A stretch of 32,000 bases of DNA, from contig NZ_CP042905.2 in assembly GCF_008000775.2 (NCBI RefSeq), forward strand, positions 1,080,001 to 1,112,000. Direction: 5' to 3'. Shown here piece by piece: positions 15,503 through 21,854 of the stretch. Each line of letters begins with the position of its first letter. The first letter of the stretch is position 1. The notes beneath the pieces are model-generated. The model was given only the letters and a program-made list of their open reading frames with translations, had not been told where the DNA came from and did no database searches. Made by a program: the position numbers and the translations under genes. This DNA comes from Promethearchaeum syntrophicum (lineage in GTDB: Archaea > Asgardarchaeota > Lokiarchaeia > Sigyniarchaeales > Promethearchaeaceae).

Positions 15503-16510
15503 TTGGATAAAAAATACAAAGATTTGAGGGATATTCCGTGGGTAGAGAAATATCGTCCCAAACATCTAAATGATATAATTAGTCAAACTTTAACGGTGCA
15601 ATCATTAAGGAATTTTGTAGAAAAGAAAACTTTACCACATTTAATTTTTGCAGGACCCGCTGGAACCGGTAAAACTTCCACAGCGAGATCATTAATTAAT
15701 GACTTTTTGCAGACCGAGAATAACCGGATTCCTCAAGATTGTATGCTAGAAAAGAATGCTTCTGACGAGGTACGAATGGGAAAACTGGACCAAATTAAAA
15801 ATTTCGTATTTCATCGAGGAATAACCAACGCAAATCATTTTAAATTTGTAGTATTAGATGAAGCTGACAATATTCCAAAAGCGGTCCAGTCTGCTTTCCG
15901 AAGAATAATAGAGATGGCACCTCCTAACGTGAAATTCATTTTTATGTGTAATTTTGTAGAAAAAATAATCGATCCAGTCTTAAGTCGGTGTGCAATATTT
16001 AGATTTTATCCTCTTCCTCGTGCTGGCTTTGATCAAAATATGAAATCAATTGCAAAAAATGAAAAGATCAAGGTTTCCAAGAATGTTTTTGATGCAATTT
16101 ATTATATTACATTAGGCGATATGCGTCTTGCAATAAATTTGTTTCAAATGATTGTAGCTCTTCATGAAGATGAGACATTAGACAGTATTCCAATTAATCC
16201 TGATGTGGTATATGAAATATCTGGGTATTTACCCCAGAAGAAATTGGATGATTTATACAAATATTGTGAATCATTAAATTATGGAGAGGTCCTAAAAATA
16301 CTTAATACTCTTCAAGGATTTTCAAGTCGGGGATTATTTCGCCAAATAATGTCCAAAGTATTAAGTTCTGAGCTAAATTTTCCTGTTAGGGAACGATTGT
16401 TAACTATAATTGCTGAATATGATTATCGATTATCATTAAGTGCAGATCCTCAAATCCAAATTAATGGCTTTTTTGCCAACTTAATCTCTATTTTAGGAGG
16501 AACTGAATAA
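15503..16510 (+). CDS. rfcS: replication factor C small subunit (canonical ATPase)
   Basis: IPWVEKYRPKHLNDI (RFC box II), Walker A GPAGTGKT, NASDE, Walker B VVLDEADN, SRC arginine-finger motif LSRCAIFRF, sensor GDMRLAIN. TTG start preceded by GAGG. Confidence 0.9.
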   Translation: MDKKYKDLRDIPWVEKYRPKHLNDIISQTLTVQSLRNFVEKKTLPHLIFAGPAGTGKTSTARSLINDFLQTENNRIPQDCMLEKNASDEVRMGKLDQIKNFVFHRGITNANHFKFVVLDEADNIPKAVQSAFRRIIEMAPPNVKFIFMCNFVEKIIDPVLSRCAIFRFYPLPRAGFDQNMKSIAKNEKIKVSKNVFDAIYYITLGDMRLAINLFQMIVALHEDETLDSIPINPDVVYEISGYLPQKKLDDLYKYCESLNYGEVLKILNTLQGFSSRGLFRQIMSKVLSSELNFPVRERLLTIIAEYDYRLSLSADPQIQINGFFANLISILGGTE

Positions 16511-16512
16511 AA

Positions 16513-17616
16513 ATGGACGAAAAATCTGATTCTAAAGTAGATTCTCAAAAAATGTATGTTCCAGGAGATTTAATGTCTAGTCCATTATGGAGAATTAAAT
16601 ACCGGCCATTAATGCTTGATTCAATAAAAATCTACTATCCAAAGATATACTCTCAGTTGAAAGGATATTCTAAAGCAGGAAATATCCCACATTTAATTTT
16701 TGTTGGACCTGAAGGAGGAGGAAAAACATTACTGGCTGAATTATTATCACGGGAATTATTAAAATCAGAGTTCTCGATCAATTATAAACTGCTTTTTGCT
16801 GATGATCCTATTGGAAAAACGGAACGTAATGAATCAAATAAACAAGGTAGGATTTCAACTCGTAGAATTGGTTCAGGTGCTGGATCTGTTCGTAGATATA
16901 GGCCTTTTATTCAGATGAGGGTCCGTCCATTTTTATCAAATAGGAAATTCGGGGATGCTCCGTTTAAAATCTTAACAATAAAAAATTTCCATAGATTAGA
17001 TGTCGAACAACAAGCATTTAGAAGATTGATGGAAAAATATTCTTCTAATTGTAGAATCATTATAGTCACAAATAAAATATCTGGAATTATTGATCCAATA
17101 ATTTCACGTTGTCAGCTGATTATGGTTCCTTATTTGCCTTCACATCTTTTCAATAAACTGATTAAATCTATCTGTGAAAAGGAAAAAATCGAAATAAAAT
17201 TAGATACCTTAAATTATTTGAACAAAATAACTCATTTTAATATTGGAAAAGCCTTAGATTTACTACAACTTACCTATTTAACATTTAAATCAATTAATAT
17301 AAACAATCTCTCTAAAATGAAGAGTCAATTGAGTAACACTTTAGTGAAAGATTTATTTATTCAGACTTCTAAAGGAAAATTCCCATTAATTCGTAGAACC
17401 TTGCGCGAAATTTTTAAACAAAAATCCCTCTCAAAGGCTGAAATTTTAGTAGAATTGAGTAGGGTAGTTATACAATTACCATTAGAACGAAAATTGCGCG
17501 TTTTATATCTCGATTTGATAGCAAGAACCGATTTTGAATCTATCGAATCTAATGATGATGAAATTCAACTTAATAAATTACTTTCTCAAATGATGTTAGT
17601 TGGACAGGAGATATAG
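16513..17616 (+). CDS. divergent second RFC small-subunit paralogue lacking Walker B acidic residues
   Basis: WRIKYRP, Walker A GPEGGGKT, SRC motif IISRCQLIMV, and RFC-like QQAFRRLMEKYSSNCRIIIVTN are present. The DEAD position reads KNFH (16981-16992) and NASD reads FADD. There is a ~45-aa Arg-rich insert. AGGAGG lies upstream of the ATG, and the gene starts 2 nt after the rfcS stop. Confidence 0.8.
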   Translation: MDEKSDSKVDSQKMYVPGDLMSSPLWRIKYRPLMLDSIKIYYPKIYSQLKGYSKAGNIPHLIFVGPEGGGKTLLAELLSRELLKSEFSINYKLLFADDPIGKTERNESNKQGRISTRRIGSGAGSVRRYRPFIQMRVRPFLSNRKFGDAPFKILTIKNFHRLDVEQQAFRRLMEKYSSNCRIIIVTNKISGIIDPIISRCQLIMVPYLPSHLFNKLIKSICEKEKIEIKLDTLNYLNKITHFNIGKALDLLQLTYLTFKSININNLSKMKSQLSNTLVKDLFIQTSKGKFPLIRRTLREIFKQKSLSKAEILVELSRVVIQLPLERKLRVLYLDLIARTDFESIESNDDEIQLNKLLSQMMLVGQEI

Positions 17617-17619
17617 AAG

Positions 17620-18966
17620 ATGAGTGAAGCAAAAAAGAGTAATATTCCTTGGGTTGAAAAATATCGTCCACAATCTGCTAAAGATTTAATTGGATTTGAA
17701 AAAGTAATAAATAAATTGAAGCAATTTCTGGATGATTTTTTTATTTTTCAAGCAAAATATCGAAACCTAAGGAAAGAAATTAAAACCATTTCAGACCCCC
17801 CCTTGTTAAAGAAAAAAAAACTCCAGCTTAAATCTTTTCAATTAAAAATGCAGAGGCACAAAGCTCAAATATTAATAGGGCCTCCTGGAGTTGGAAAAAC
17901 CACTATTGTATACGCTCTAGCTAATGATTATAATATGAGTGTTATTGAATTAAACGCTTCAGATGTCAGAACTGAAGATGCGATACAAAATAAATTACAA
18001 GAAACTGTAAAATCTACAAATCTTCTCTCGTTTACGTCAAAAAAATCTAAAGGGAAAATTATTTTAATCGATGAAGTTGATGGGTTACACGGTCAGAGCG
18101 ATCGAGGTGGAGTTAAGGCCCTTGTTAATATTATCGCCCAATCAAAATTCCCCCTCATCTTGACATGCAACTTTCGAGATAAAAAATTAAAATCCTTATT
18201 TGATCTATTAGGTTCTATTGATATCTCTCAAGCCTCAGCCAAAGATATCTCAAAAGTGCTGAGAAAAATATCAAAATATGAAAATCTTGATATATCAGAG
18301 GACCAAATCCATCAGCTTGCAATTGGATCAAATGGAGATTATAGATCTTCAATTAACGATCTCCAAGCTCTCACGCAAAGTAGTCATAGCATTGATGAAG
18401 AGACCCTCAAAAATATTAATATTAAAAGAGATACAGAAACTGAAGTCCAACTTTTCATGAATAATATGTTTGCGACTTATAGAATTAAGGATACAAAAAA
18501 AATAATAGATGATGTTCTTGGACCTGGAATTGATTTCCGGTCAATTCATAAATGGATTAACGAAAATTTATTGTCTTATATCACAAAGAGATATGATTTG
18601 TATTATGCTTTTGAAAATCTTGCACATTCTGATAGAATCCTTGGGTATGTTGGGCGAACTCAAGATTATGCTCATTTAAGTTATTACTTTGATATTTTAG
18701 CTGGAGTTCGGTACGCAAAATCTGATAAAATATTACCAAAAGATAAAAAAGTACGACCTCCAAGATGGTTCAGGACGCGAGCAGTTCCGGATGATGAAGT
18801 TGCTTTAAGTCTTCAAAAACTCTACACACTTTCTTTAAATTCTATTATGAAGGAAATTCGTCCTAATCTAAACTTGTTTCTCAAGTTTCCAATTGGAATA
18901 AAAGAATATCTTGCTTCTGTATTACAGGAAGATGTTAAAAAAATTCCAAAATTGATCGCAAATTAA
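17620..18966 (+). CDS. rfcL: replication factor C large subunit
   Basis: IPWVEKYRPQSAKDLIG, Walker A GPPGVGKTT, VIELNASDVRT, Walker B IILIDEVDGLHGQSDRGG and PLILTCN are the typical archaeal RFC-L pattern. A ~40-aa insert precedes Walker A. The gene starts 3 nt after the preceding stop, with AGGAG upstream. Confidence 0.85.
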   Translation: MSEAKKSNIPWVEKYRPQSAKDLIGFEKVINKLKQFLDDFFIFQAKYRNLRKEIKTISDPPLLKKKKLQLKSFQLKMQRHKAQILIGPPGVGKTTIVYALANDYNMSVIELNASDVRTEDAIQNKLQETVKSTNLLSFTSKKSKGKIILIDEVDGLHGQSDRGGVKALVNIIAQSKFPLILTCNFRDKKLKSLFDLLGSIDISQASAKDISKVLRKISKYENLDISEDQIHQLAIGSNGDYRSSINDLQALTQSSHSIDEETLKNINIKRDTETEVQLFMNNMFATYRIKDTKKIIDDVLGPGIDFRSIHKWINENLLSYITKRYDLYYAFENLAHSDRILGYVGRTQDYAHLSYYFDILAGVRYAKSDKILPKDKKVRPPRWFRTRAVPDDEVALSLQKLYTLSLNSIMKEIRPNLNLFLKFPIGIKEYLASVLQEDVKKIPKLIAN

Positions 18967-18981
18967 AGATAATAATCTATG

Positions 18982-18994
18982 TTTTGCTTTTTTT
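18982..18994 (+). terminator. oligo-T tract downstream of rfcL (archaeal-type terminator candidate)
   Basis: ttttgcttttttt begins 16 nt after the rfcL stop, in a convergent intergenic region. Confidence 0.4.
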
Positions 18995-19067
18995 GAAATT
19001 AAAAATTCTTTCTTTCGCCGATTTAACATATTCCGCTGAATTATCATACCCTATAAAATGATGTTTT

Positions 19068-19679
19068 TCACCAAATATCATAATAATGTTGAATAAAATC
19101 TAATGAAGTGTTAGGCCCTTTAGATATATTATTCCAATCAATTGGGATGTATTTACAATCAGGATCGCTTTTTAATGCATTGAAACCTTTTGTAGATAAA
19201 GAAACACCTCTAGGATTTGTTCCTGATTTAGGTTTATTCAGAAATTCTGATTTGAGTTTTTTTCGAATTTTCTGTAGTAATTCAATTGAAAAATAATAGA
19301 GTCCCCCAACAGATTTTTGAAAGATTAAAAGAATTATTGGATATTTTGGGGTGAATTCTTCATAGAATTTAATAGCAAGTTCATAATTACTTGTCCATAT
19401 TAATTTAAAGCTTTTTGAGATACTAGTTTTAAAAGAAATCAATTCATTAAATAAGATAAAATCAGCTTCAGCTTCTTGAGGAGGTAATTTATCAGAGAAA
19501 TTATCTCCAAAATGTTTTGAAAAAATGCCTATTATCATCTTTTCTCTTAGAGTTCCAATATCTGGGGATAATTTTCCATCTTTTGCAAAAGCATTATTTA
19601 AATCGTAGATATATTTAGGAAATCTATTTTGAATTTTTTTTATAAATGTTTTGTCATTGAATATATCATTAAAGCTCAT
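19068..19679 (-). CDS. putative type II restriction endonuclease (PD-(D/E)xK-like candidate)
   Basis: It is the last gene of a co-oriented cassette behind two MTase-family genes. A possible nuclease core is EAEADFILFNELISFKTS (D...E/S-x-K spacing). The call rests on context plus this weak motif only. Confidence 0.4.
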   Translation of the reverse strand: MSFNDIFNDKTFIKKIQNRFPKYIYDLNNAFAKDGKLSPDIGTLREKMIIGIFSKHFGDNFSDKLPPQEAEADFILFNELISFKTSISKSFKLIWTSNYELAIKFYEEFTPKYPIILLIFQKSVGGLYYFSIELLQKIRKKLKSEFLNKPKSGTNPRGVSLSTKGFNALKSDPDCKYIPIDWNNISKGPNTSLDFIQHYYDIW

Positions 19680-19745
19680 AAAGAGAGTGAATAAAAAGTA
19701 AAAATAACAATATTAATACTATTGTGATAATATCACTTTTTATTT

Positions 19746-20585
19746 TTACCATTCAAAGAAAATATTCATATTTCTATGATTTTGTGCAAATTTCATAAAA
19801 TCACGATTAATATTTGGAAATATATATAATATATTATCTTCAACAAAGGAAAATAGATGAATAAATCTTTGAATATAATCTGTAATTTCCTTGGATTGAA
19901 TAAGAGTTTCATCATTTTTTAACATTAACTCATTATTATATCGCCAAATTGATTTTGTATATGTTAAAAATTGATCACGAGTAATGGTATCTGTTTTTTC
20001 AAATGCTTTCCTTTTATTTTTTTTAATCCGTTTTAACACATCTTTACTTGAAATAAGTGCAATATTTAGATTAGAATTTAAGTTATCAAGGGATTTTTCA
20101 AAATTCTTATTAGGAATATTAAGAATTACATTTCCCCTCATAATCATATCACTATTAATCAGGATTTTAGTAATTTTTGCATGAAGGGGATAAAATTGAG
20201 AATTTTTGACATTTTTATCAATATGATTATTTACAAGAATTATTAAGCGCCCCCCTGTTATCAAAAATTTTCTTAAAATCTTTATTGTTTTTACAATTTC
20301 TTGAAACCATTTATCAAAATTTTCAAAGATATCTTTATCAATTTGCGGGATTTGAACAATTATAAGATGTATACTTTCATCTATAATTTTTTTAGCATTT
20401 ATTTCATTAAATTTTAAGACTTCATTAAATATTTCTTTTGAAATTTCTGCTGATCTATCAATAACTTCTTTTTTTTCATTTATAATAAAACCATCATATA
20501 ATCTAGATGAGTAAAATTGACGCGAATCATGCCCCTCTCTTTTAGATACTCCAAAATCACTTGTTTTGGTACGATTTCTTGACAT
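19746..20585 (-). CDS. DNA-methyltransferase-like paralogue with ablated catalytic and SAM motifs
   Basis: It aligns by eye along its length with the neighbouring MTase: DESIHLIIVQIPQ vs DESIHLMVTSPPY; ITGGRLIILVNN vs IPGGIVALNIAN; SIWRYN vs NLWAFG; FSFVEDNILYIFPNINRD vs FSEENDIILDPFMGSGST. It remains an intact 279-codon ORF in a very AT-rich region. Confidence 0.65.
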   Translation of the reverse strand: MSRNRTKTSDFGVSKREGHDSRQFYSSRLYDGFIINEKKEVIDRSAEISKEIFNEVLKFNEINAKKIIDESIHLIIVQIPQIDKDIFENFDKWFQEIVKTIKILRKFLITGGRLIILVNNHIDKNVKNSQFYPLHAKITKILINSDMIMRGNVILNIPNKNFEKSLDNLNSNLNIALISSKDVLKRIKKNKRKAFEKTDTITRDQFLTYTKSIWRYNNELMLKNDETLIQSKEITDYIQRFIHLFSFVEDNILYIFPNINRDFMKFAQNHRNMNIFFEW

Positions 20586-20610
20586 TTTGATTTTTCACTT
20601 TTTATTCGGA

Positions 20611-21615
20611 TTATTTAAGATAGGATAATAAGTTATTCTGTATTTTTCGTTTCTTCTTTGATTCTGAAGTAATTGTCTCTTCATTCCTTTTGATAACTTG
20701 GGTTAATTTTTTAGGAAATGGGAGTGGTTCAATTTGATTAGGCTTTAGATTTCCTTTCTTTAATTCTTCTTTGATTCTCTTTTTTTCTTTTCTTTCCCTC
20801 TTTATTCTTATTTTTTTCTTTTCTGGATGATAATATTCATCAATTCTTCTTTCACAATTAGCAATATACTGATGATTTATTTCATAACCAACGTACCTTC
20901 TCTTAGCAATGATGGCAGCAAGAGCAGTTGATCCAGATCCCATAAAAGGATCTAAAATAATATCATTTTCTTCAGAAAACATTAGAATAATCTTATATGG
21001 TAGTTCTACCCTAAAAGGTGCAGGATGATTAACCCTTTTTGCGCTTTCAGTTCCAAATGCCCATAGATTTGTTAATAATTCTTCTTCATTAATTTCCACT
21101 TTTTTATCATCAATTTTTTCAGGAAATTTATTGATTCTTCCTTTTGGAAAATGAATTACTTTTCTATCTAAATCAGGTTTTCGAGCAATAATAATATATT
21201 CATGAACATCTCTTAAAGAAGGGTTTGATGCTGATTGCCAACTACCCCATGCACAACTTCCACCTGCACTGGCGGCTTTATCCCATATGATTTCTTGTAT
21301 TATTTCAAAATGTAATTTTTCAAGGATTTCAATAAAATAACAATCTAAAGGAAGATATGGCTTTCGTCCAACATTAGCTATATTCAATGCTACGATACCT
21401 CCCGGAATTAAAACCCGAGAGATTTCTTTATGAACTTCTTCAATAAAATCTAAATATTCTTTTAAATTCAAGTTTTCATCATATTGTTTTGTTACATTAT
21501 AGGGTGGTGATGTCACCATTAAATGGATAGATTCATCTTTTAATTGTGTCATTTTTCGAGAATCTTGACAATAAATTTTATTCCACAATGAATCTTGAGC
21601 TTTCAATAATTTCAA
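20611..21615 (-). CDS. beta-class N4-cytosine/N6-adenine DNA methyltransferase with C-terminal basic tail
   Basis: Motif IV TSPPY (21499-21510) precedes motif I DPFMGSGST, which is the beta-class order of the N6_N4_Mtase family. SPPY is most often seen in m4C enzymes. A ~70-aa K/R/E-rich tail ends in KKKRKIQNNLLSYLK. A TTG start at 21615 is needed to retain the conserved WNKIYCQD segment. Confidence 0.85.
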   Translation of the reverse strand: MKLLKAQDSLWNKIYCQDSRKMTQLKDESIHLMVTSPPYNVTKQYDENLNLKEYLDFIEEVHKEISRVLIPGGIVALNIANVGRKPYLPLDCYFIEILEKLHFEIIQEIIWDKAASAGGSCAWGSWQSASNPSLRDVHEYIIIARKPDLDRKVIHFPKGRINKFPEKIDDKKVEINEEELLTNLWAFGTESAKRVNHPAPFRVELPYKIILMFSEENDIILDPFMGSGSTALAAIIAKRRYVGYEINHQYIANCERRIDEYYHPEKKKIRIKRERKEKKRIKEELKKGNLKPNQIEPLPFPKKLTQVIKRNEETITSESKKKRKIQNNLLSYLK

Positions 21616-21854
21616 TTCCAGTTTTTTTTATATTTATCAAAGATTTTATTTTTTTAATAATTTCACCATTAATAAATGATATTACAGAACTAAATTATTT
21701 AACGTATGTTTTAATTCGAAATTATTAGAAATGCAACTTGAAATATTTTTCGAACTTTCGATAAATTTGTATCGTGTTTTCTAAATAATTTTTTTTTTTT
21801 GGGAGAAGAGGATACAACTACAAGTTGACTTTACTTTATGATACTCCAAAAGAA

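Follow-up and report, generated by a model that had tools for sequence, protein, structure and literature searches.

The DNA analyzed here, a stretch of 32,000 nucleotides (the window) from Promethearchaeum syntrophicum MK-D1, contains three open reading frames (ORFs) in the same orientation on the minus strand, separated by gaps of 25 and 66 nt. This arrangement had been described in an earlier sequence-only reading of the stretch, and the ORF coordinates obtained here (Table 1) agree with it. The ORFs encode a catalytic beta-class amino-methyltransferase (MTase) (gene 1), a catalytically dead paralog of this enzyme (gene 2), and a ThaI-family type II restriction endonuclease (gene 3). Comparative analysis suggests, with a probability of about 0.65, that the locus is a ThaI-type type II restriction-modification (R-M) system with a two-piece methylase, a heteromer of the gene 1 and gene 2 products that evolved from a homodimer. 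Strict adjacency of the two genes, their natural fusions, and reciprocal motif loss all fit the sequence-only proposal that the dead paralog could be a recognition or scaffolding subunit of a heteromeric MTase. Judged from their sequences, the nuclease and the catalytic MTase both belong to known families and are ordinary within them; the dead paralog is the unusual element. That gene 2 is functional and tied to gene 1 is very probable, and this conclusion is held with more confidence than the full heteromer model.

The catalytic MTase and its dead paralog

Gene 1 matches Pfam model PF01555 (E = 2.8e-44) and PADLOC profile MTase_II PDLC03350 (E = 4e-87, profile positions 54-303 of 312). Its motif IV (TSPPY) lies upstream of motif I (DPFMGSGST), which is the beta-class order and places it in this class. 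Both motifs had been read as intact in the earlier reading, with which the PF01555 match agrees. An HPAPF motif is also present, and the SAG..AWGSW..NPxLRD loop is identical to that of the canonical enzymes, that is, the single-chain relatives described below. Gene 1 encodes an active-looking beta-class MTase that probably targets N4-cytosine, as predicted from its SPPY-type motif IV. The canonical N-terminal motif is missing from gene 1, and GGI, PLD, IIQE, and T-NLW replace the canonical GGR, PLH, MRGE, and TKSxW. The start annotated by NCBI lies three codons later, at a second TTG, and gives a protein of 331 aa (QEE15745.1). The C terminus is a Lys-rich tail of ~70 aa (~aa 262-334; window 20611-20832), which is present in the closest relatives, absent from most proteins of this type, and might bind DNA nonspecifically. 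Its composition resembles that of the linkers in the natural fusions described below. Between MK-D1 and the sister metagenome-assembled genome (MAG) L005, the ratio of nonsynonymous to synonymous substitution rates (dN/dS) of gene 1 is 0.28.

Gene 2 is identical to DSAG12_01571, which is annotated as a hypothetical protein, and has no Pfam match. It matches the PADLOC profile that gene 1 also matches, PDLC03350 (E = 9e-27, positions 7-261 of 312), and a profile-profile alignment (hhalign) with the canonical relatives has a probability of 100% (E = 4.4e-53, 238 columns). VQIPQ (gene 2 residues 77-81, nt 20343-20357) is aligned exactly onto TSPPY, and the alignment stops just before motif I. The AlphaFold2 (AF2) model of gene 2 has a predicted template modeling score (pTM) of 0.80, and its best Foldseek match is TTHA0409 (E = 4.5e-11), followed in order by rotifer N4CMT, M.PvuII, M.RsrI, M1.MboII, and CcrM. 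Homologous in fold and devoid of catalytic motifs IV and I, the predicted gene 2 product is a pseudoenzyme relative and not an MTase.

The elements kept by gene 2 are an N-terminal motif (TKTSDFGVSKREGHDSxxFY), GGR, PLH, MRG, TDTIxRDQFLxYTKSxW, and RFIxLxSFxED, and those lost are motif IV, the SAG..AWGSW loop, HPAPFP, motif I, and the C-terminal helix. The columns of motifs IV and I are variable across the dead-type family, which indicates that no replacement catalytic motif has arisen. The description of gene 2 as a full-length, motif-dead paralog holds for the motifs, with VQIPQ at motif IV and the S-adenosylmethionine (SAM)-binding motif gone, and fails for the length, as the domain is short by ~25 C-terminal residues. 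Its N-terminal extension, which had been considered peculiar to gene 2, occurs as an invariant motif throughout the canonical family and was lost by gene 1. The AF2 monomer models of the dead protein and of a canonical enzyme both leave this arm unplaced (pLDDT 35-47), together with loops whose counterparts in related enzymes are ordered only once DNA is bound. Such behavior is compatible with a role in trans or a DNA-dependent role without being decisive.

Gene 2 is conserved and under selection rather than decaying, as judged from its reading frame and its relatives. With a stop probability of 0.099 per codon, the probability of 279 open codons is ~2e-13, and the other two frames of the same strand hold 25 and 49 stops. 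The dN/dS of gene 2 between MK-D1 and L005 is 0.24; the values for gene 1, gene 3, and the neighboring MFS transporter gene are 0.28, 0.13, and 0.23, respectively. The dead-type family comprises ~31 clusters at the 90% level (258-308 aa, 34-82% identity to gene 2), without a Pfam domain; 30 columns are invariant across the 31 sequences, and all named members are from Promethearchaeota. An exhaustive profile search of 1.84 billion representatives retrieved ~21 full-length dead-type clusters at the 50% level and then canonical MTases only. Full-length orthologs of gene 2 occur in two cultured Asgard genomes. The earlier argument that the long open frame reflects selection is thus borne out by the dN/dS, the frame probability, and the conserved family. 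In place of the frameshifts or stops in relatives that would have pointed to decay, full-length orthologs were found, with the 30 residues invariant down to 34% identity.

Conservation of the pair across genomes

Separate genes of the two types, hereafter partner type (gene 1) and dead type (gene 2), were found together at 11 loci (the window, L001, L003, L005, L006, L008, L010, L012, L018, L095, and L096), of which L095 is the Lokiarchaeum ossiferum chromosome and L096 is a MAG labeled Hodarchaeota. In all 11, a partner-type PF01555 MTase gene lies immediately upstream of the dead-type gene, with a spacing of -32 to +25 nt; outside MK-D1, the two genes abut or overlap (-32 to +5 nt). At least 15 further pairs of partner and dead clusters have longest contigs of equal size. 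The search with gene 1 retrieved 50 partner-type clusters and then switched abruptly to canonical enzymes. All 50 lack the N-terminal, RGE, and TKS motifs, which makes them a sharply separate class. No partner-type gene without a dead-type neighbor was found among the loci examined.

A ThaI-like gene lies beside the pair at only three loci, namely, the window, L005, and L012, in the last of which the nuclease gene is divergently paired with the partner-type MTase gene. The other 9 of 12 pair loci (the 11 separate-gene loci plus the L016 fusion) have no ThaI gene in the surrounding DNA examined. Conservation of the trio as a unit, a check that the sequence-only reading had proposed, is therefore limited to the closest relatives, and by these comparisons the conserved unit is the partner/dead pair. 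In most other genomes, the pair alone is probably an orphan methylase. The same distribution speaks against two roles envisaged earlier for gene 2, that of a nuclease regulator and that of a part in a nonclassical defense module; in the latter case, the nuclease is also a standard type II enzyme and the trio occurs only in the closest relatives. At L006 (7425-8339) and L008 (4992-6269), another PF01555 MTase, unrelated and more distant (304 and 425 aa, respectively), is encoded just downstream of the pair, indicating that MTase genes cluster at these loci.

Natural fusions of the two proteins (Table 1) include in-frame partner-linker-dead proteins in three diverged lineages (L016, P0218, and P0248). 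The P0218 cluster contains MCF2139007.1, from the closed 4.36-Mb genome of "Candidatus Harpocratesius repetitus," which indicates that the fusion is old and maintained and is no sequencing artifact. A fourth protein, P0230, has the reverse order. Its N-terminal half keeps the N-terminal motif, GGR, PLH, RGE, and TKS and has AAPTI in place of SPPY and DPYAFGH in place of motif I, and its second half is active-looking, with GGW, MAGE, and HSSVW, so that the motifs are partitioned as in the Asgard pair. Both halves score higher on the canonical profile than on the Asgard-specific profiles, and for this reason the reverse-order fusion seems to have arisen independently. The extra C-terminal ~200 aa of P0230 contain a Zn-ribbon-like CxxC...CxxC and an IEAK motif; neither this region nor the downstream 219-aa gene has a Pfam or PADLOC match.

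Reciprocal motif loss and phylogeny

Canonical single-chain relatives of the pair occur in Nitrososphaera, Methanobrevibacter, Bathyarchaeota, other Asgard groups, and some bacteria, and 66 of 77 of them carry all six marker motifs in one chain. The partition of conserved positions between the two types was analyzed over the 120 alignment columns in which 78 canonical enzymes show at least 85% conservation. In total, 68 columns are retained by the partner type only, 25 by the dead type only, 10 by both, and 17 by neither, whereas independent loss would give ~23 and ~30 columns in the last two classes (odds ratio, 0.1; Fisher p = 1.5e-7). The partner-only columns comprise SPPY and its surroundings, the GRKPY loop, IIWxK, SAG..AWGSW..NPxLRDxHEY, HPAPF, and DPFxGxG. 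The dead-only columns (numbered as in M3, a canonical MTase of L005) comprise the N-terminal motif (T19-Y36), H84, G125/R127, H144, M158/R159/G160, S198, I213, F218, T222/K223/S224, and L253/Y254. The replacements in the partner type are themselves fixed (all 12 sequences have D at H144, and 11 of the 12 have N at S224), which indicates a new constraint rather than drift.

In a distance tree, the partner and dead classes are each monophyletic with 100% bootstrap support. Mean identity is 0.35 within the dead clade and 0.62 within the partner clade, showing that the dead clade evolves faster.

The nuclease and the history of the cassette

Gene 3 matches the Pfam ThaI model (PF15514; E = 6.6e-30, 105 bits against a cut-off of 25) and, over residues 4-203, the sequence of the ThaI crystal structure (PDB 3NDH; E = 7.3e-28). 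It is thus a clear member of the ThaI family, where the sequence-only reading had recognized only a weak PD-(D/E)xK signature. It also matches PADLOC REase_II, and NCBI already annotates it as a ThaI-family type II restriction endonuclease. The ThaI enzyme cleaves CG/CG with an active site of Glu54/Asp82/Lys93, its Met47 intercalates at CG steps, and an N4-cytosine MTase serves as its cognate methylase (PMC3025569); M.ThaI produces m4C at CGCG (PMC11033074). Alignment maps the active-site residues to E46/D73/K84 of gene 3, all intact, and W95 and N155 correspond to the conserved recognition elements W107 and N169 (TNPRG) of ThaI. Gene 3 retains 31 of 31 positions that are at least 90% conserved among 17 family members, and its dN/dS of 0.13 between MK-D1 and L005 indicates purifying selection. 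The predicted product is a standard type II enzyme, clearly an ordinary homodimeric nuclease of the ThaI family with the PD-(D/E)xK fold. The intercalating Met47 is replaced by Pro39 in gene 3 (window 19563-19565) and by Pro in all Promethearchaeota ThaI-like proteins, and its equivalent is retained in Nitrososphaera-type ThaI relatives. The gene 3 product may therefore recognize or distort DNA in a different way from ThaI.

Canonical MTases adjoin ThaI-like nucleases at six loci (L013, L036, L049, L051, L052, and L086), and P0249 (488 aa, from an ENA metagenome) is an R-M fusion enzyme in which a ThaI-like nuclease domain (19-191) is joined to a canonical MTase (193-483). The window shows the nuclease-MTase adjacency of a two-gene type II R-M system, with the usual canonical MTase partner present only as a relic. 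This relic of 99 nt lies just beyond the cassette coordinates given in the sequence-only reading, which had missed it. It overlaps the stop codon of gene 3 in a different frame, is the C-terminal tail of a canonical MTase, and shows 81% nucleotide identity to the 3' end of M3 in L005 (3436-3508). M3 is a complete canonical MTase of 307 aa (L005 3425-4348) encoded between the replication factor C (RFC) gene and the trio. The relic matches the C terminus of M3 at 18 of 25 residues and that of gene 1 at 5 of 25. The idea that gene 2 and the relic are parts of one MTase interrupted by the nuclease gene was rejected because the dead family ends at an identical point in all members and the relic matches the separate M3 gene. 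Since the canonical MTase has been reduced to a relic and the nuclease is intact and under selection, the two-gene methylase most likely protects the chromosome. The most economical interpretation would be that it modifies the site of gene 3 and now protects the MK-D1 genome.

Relative to L005, the trio is in inverted orientation in MK-D1 (window 19064-21759, matching L005 7521-4828). Beside this block, L005 carries a diverged extra 3' end of the RFC-L gene, 83% identical to the native copy (2522-2852/4334-4664), and a diverged extra copy of the MFS flank, 85% identical (4280-4340/7530-7590). Between MK-D1 and L005, the trio has a synonymous divergence (dS) of 0.31-0.45, below the 0.70-1.03 of the flanking genes. 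These features, taken with the low GC content of genes 2 and 3, suggest that the cassette has been mobile, rearranged, or exchanged at this site.

Proposed explanation and alternatives

In the proposed explanation, the common ancestor of genes 1 and 2 would have been a canonical single-chain, M.ThaI-like beta-class N4-cytosine MTase of the homodimeric type. A tandem duplication in the ancestor of Promethearchaeota would have been followed by complementary losses in the two copies. The gene 1 type would have kept SAM binding and methyl transfer (SPPY, the SAG..AWGSW loop, HPAPF, and DPFxGSG), and the gene 2 type would have kept the invariant N-terminal arm and polar residues (GGR, PLH, MRG, and TKSxW), which every protomer of a homodimer supplies. 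The dead protomer would supply the arm and the polar residues in trans to the catalytic protomer, where they could bind DNA or the nontarget strand or complete the active site of the partner. After loss of the canonical MTase, the resulting methylase would protect the MK-D1 chromosome from gene 3. We infer the physical complex, the dependence of gene 1 on gene 2, the methylated base and site, and the protection against gene 3 from these comparisons. A wider proposal is tentative, with the balance somewhat against it: the pair may be an obligate heterodimeric N4-cytosine methylase of Promethearchaeota (Lokiarchaeia) and at least one MAG labeled Hodarchaeota, mostly free of a nuclease and acting as an epigenetic writer rather than in defense. 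The seemingly independent reverse-order fusion would then suggest that the route from a homodimer to a hard-wired catalytic/noncatalytic heterodimer is recurrent among class beta MTases. In such an enzyme, the N-terminal arm and basic residues of the pseudoenzyme would act in trans at the active site of the partner or on the nontarget strand.

Several observations weigh against the two-piece R-M system. The evidence for a complex of genes 1 and 2 is comparative, consisting of adjacency, fusions, and reciprocal motif retention, and the columns of the partition test are not independent, being grouped in contiguous motifs. The partner and dead clades are not sisters in the distance tree (0% bootstrap), probably because of the long branch of the dead clade, so that a single duplication is suggested by synteny and not by the tree. 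A Mantel test for coevolution gave r = 0.87 (p = 1e-4) but r = 0.40 without one close pair, and it was dropped as evidence since this pair drives the signal. The AF2 monomer models, in which the arm is unplaced in both proteins, are not decisive on the role of the elements found only in the dead subunit. With Pro in place of Met47, the recognition site of gene 3 could differ from CGCG, and CGCG is not underrepresented in the window (15 observed, 12.9 expected). Finally, an MTase encoded elsewhere in the MK-D1 genome, outside the window, might protect against gene 3.

The last point is related to the view that genes 1 and 2 are an orphan methylase with a specificity unrelated to that of gene 3, the nuclease being silent or countered elsewhere and the trio being a chance rearrangement. 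This is unlikely, though it accounts for the 9 of 12 pair loci without a ThaI gene, for the canonical MTase also present in L005, and for the inverted and rearranged cassette. It sits poorly with an intact gene 3 that has a dN/dS of 0.13 while the adjacent canonical MTase is destroyed, with ThaI-like genes beside partner-type MTases at three loci, and with the descent of the pair from an MTase family that usually accompanies ThaI-like nucleases. It is slightly less likely still that gene 1 is a self-sufficient homodimer and gene 2 a nonessential accessory kept alongside after the duplication, one that might modulate specificity, processivity, or hemimethylation preference or might read methylated DNA. 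Gene 1 does keep every catalytic motif, with a loop identical to the canonical one, and its dependence on gene 2 is only proposed, from comparison. However, R127, H144, R159/G160, and TKS, which are invariant in 78 canonical enzymes, are uniformly replaced in the partner type, the N-terminal motif is lost, and the dead protein keeps exactly the lost elements; moreover, at the loci examined, a partner-type gene was never seen without its dead-type neighbor, and fusions recur.

Two further explanations concern gene 2 itself. Its position between the MTase and nuclease genes in MK-D1 would suit a regulator or inhibitor of the nuclease, similar to an antitoxin or a control protein. This role is very improbable, as the dead-type gene is conserved mostly where the nuclease is absent and is always tied, and sometimes fused, to the partner MTase. 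Gene 2 as a decaying pseudogene left from the duplication is effectively refuted. The loss of motifs IV and I and the lowest GC content in the cassette would agree with decay, but the open frame (P ~2e-13), the dN/dS of 0.24, the 30 residues invariant down to 34% identity, and the full-length orthologs in two cultured Asgard genomes do not. The two-piece methylase thus remains the preferred explanation of the locus.

Features of the locus and its neighborhood

The cassette is flanked by clamp-loader (RFC) genes on the left and an MFS transporter gene on the right. Of the flanks proposed by the sequence-only reading, the RFC genes stand, and the supposed ABC gene is the MFS gene, as the orthologous flank in L005 matches PF07690. 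The GC content is 0.236 for gene 2, the lowest of the cassette and within the lowest 2% of 840-nt windows, 0.263 for gene 3, and 0.297 for gene 1, compared with a mean of 0.309 for the window. The AT richness previously ascribed to the whole cassette therefore applies to genes 2 and 3 and not to gene 1.

The 25-nt spacer between genes 1 and 2 fits cotranscription of the two genes. The spacer between genes 2 and 3 may contain a putative promoter or operator for the nuclease gene; its palindromes are GTGATA-T-TATCAC and CAATAG-N5-ATATTG, the second of which is a perfect CAATAT-N5-ATATTG in L005. In the region upstream of gene 1, the ~65 nt nearest the gene are nearly identical in the sister genome, with a TATA-like AAATATAAAA ~26 nt before the second TTG, and this region is a candidate promoter. 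Scans of the window for tRNAs and Rfam families gave no matches. CTAG is the most underrepresented palindromic tetramer in the window (36 observed, 53 expected; 0.68) and is low in several related loci too; as a clue to specificity, its depletion was judged not specific to the R-M locus.

Table 1. Features of the cassette and its surroundings (window coordinates unless another source is given) and natural fusions of partner- and dead-type proteins
Feature	Coordinates	Strand	Description
Three tandem ORFs	15503-18966	+	335/367/448 aa; last two are clamp-loader (RFC-like AAA+) genes
M3 relic (third, canonical MTase gene)	18977..19075	-	32 codons + stop, FGEKHHFIGYDNSAEYVKSAKERIFNFKKSKT*
Gene 3, ThaI-family type II restriction endonuclease	19068..19679	-	203 aa
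Gene 2-gene 3 spacer	19680..19745	-	66 nt; AT-rich, short palindromes; partly conserved with L005
Gene 2, catalytically dead (dead-type) paralog	19746..20585	-	279 aa
Gene 1-gene 2 spacer	20586..20610	-	25 nt; GTGA Shine-Dalgarno-like element; sequence conserved with L005
Gene 1, catalytic (partner-type) beta-class amino-MTase	20611..21615	-	334 aa, TTG start
Gene 1 upstream region	21616..21759	-	From window-L005 alignment; 21759 is the end of the L005-conserved block
L016 ORF			600 aa; partner (3-266), Lys-rich linker, dead (295-593)
P0218			598 aa; partner + dead; 51% identical to L016 over full length
P0248			540 aa, high-GC lineage; partner + dead; 34% identical to L016 over full length
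P0230	L097 6001-8328		775 aa, bacterial-like contig; dead-like half, then active half, then ~200 aa extra

Comparison with known systems

The closest known R-M system is that of Thermoplasma acidophilum (R.ThaI, 3NDH, and M.ThaI). Its nuclease belongs to the same family as gene 3, with the same E/D/K triad, W, and TNPRG, and SPPY, a motif consistent with N4-cytosine MTases, is present in the canonical relatives of genes 1 and 2, which adjoin ThaI-like nucleases. MK-D1 differs in that two paralogous genes, of which one is dead, would encode the methylase, and in the replacement of Met47 by Pro in gene 3.

The fold and motif order of genes 1 and 2 are shared with TTHA0409 (2ZIE/2ZIF), M.PvuII, M.RsrI, M1.MboII, CcrM, and the M.EcoP15I Mod dimer. 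The class beta MTases with solved structures are dimers, including TTHA0409, the closest solved relative (PMC7544214; PMC5173035). The protomers of such homodimers can take different roles, as in M.EcoP15I, where one protomer recognizes DNA and the other catalyzes, but they are identical products of one gene (PMC7544214). In the Asgard pair, by contrast, both roles appear to be hard-wired into two diverged genes. The division of labor in a homodimer is hard to study with identical protomers, and roles placed in separate genes, which are in some cases fused again in one order or the other, would, if confirmed, offer a genetic and structural handle.

The heterodimers with an eroded partner that are described in a review of class beta enzymes, MTA1-MTA9 (of ciliates) and METTL3-METTL14, are eukaryotic only (PMC7544214). 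Like them, genes 1 and 2 combine an active subunit with a paralog whose motif IV is eroded (PMC7544214). For genes 1 and 2, a physical complex is suggested indirectly, by adjacency at 11 of 11 loci, the three fusion lineages, the seemingly independent reverse-order fusion, and reciprocal motif retention. The Asgard pair also differs in its probable target, DNA N4-cytosine, in its prokaryotic host, and in its adjacent, operon-like genes. A specific link to the MT-A70 clade did not emerge: prokaryotic beta-class enzymes give the best structural and sequence matches, and the Foldseek matches to MTA1 structures (E ~1e-4 to 1e-5) are far weaker. DNMT3A-DNMT3L is a further analog of an active MTase with an eroded partner.

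M.AquI alpha/beta and M.EcoHK31I alpha/beta are type II modification enzymes made of two polypeptides that are encoded side by side and are complementary fragments of one MTase domain. Genes 1 and 2 are not of this split type, since each encodes a whole domain (238 aligned columns for gene 2), one of which is inactivated. A literature search on methylation in Asgard archaea and Promethearchaeum and on prokaryotic MTases with a dead paralogous subunit, which did not extend to REBASE and many subscription papers, found no prior description of such an enzyme. As the gene 2 family is annotated as hypothetical and has no Pfam model, annotation of R-M systems and methylomes in Asgard archaea would miss half of the enzyme. 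If the two-piece methylase is correct, it would be an obligate heteromer that arose through duplication and complementary loss, and a prokaryotic counterpart, in the closest archaeal relatives of eukaryotes, of the active-plus-dead design of METTL3-METTL14 and MTA1-MTA9. Should the wider proposal of an obligate heterodimer also hold, these two eukaryotic complexes would be other instances of the same class beta route.

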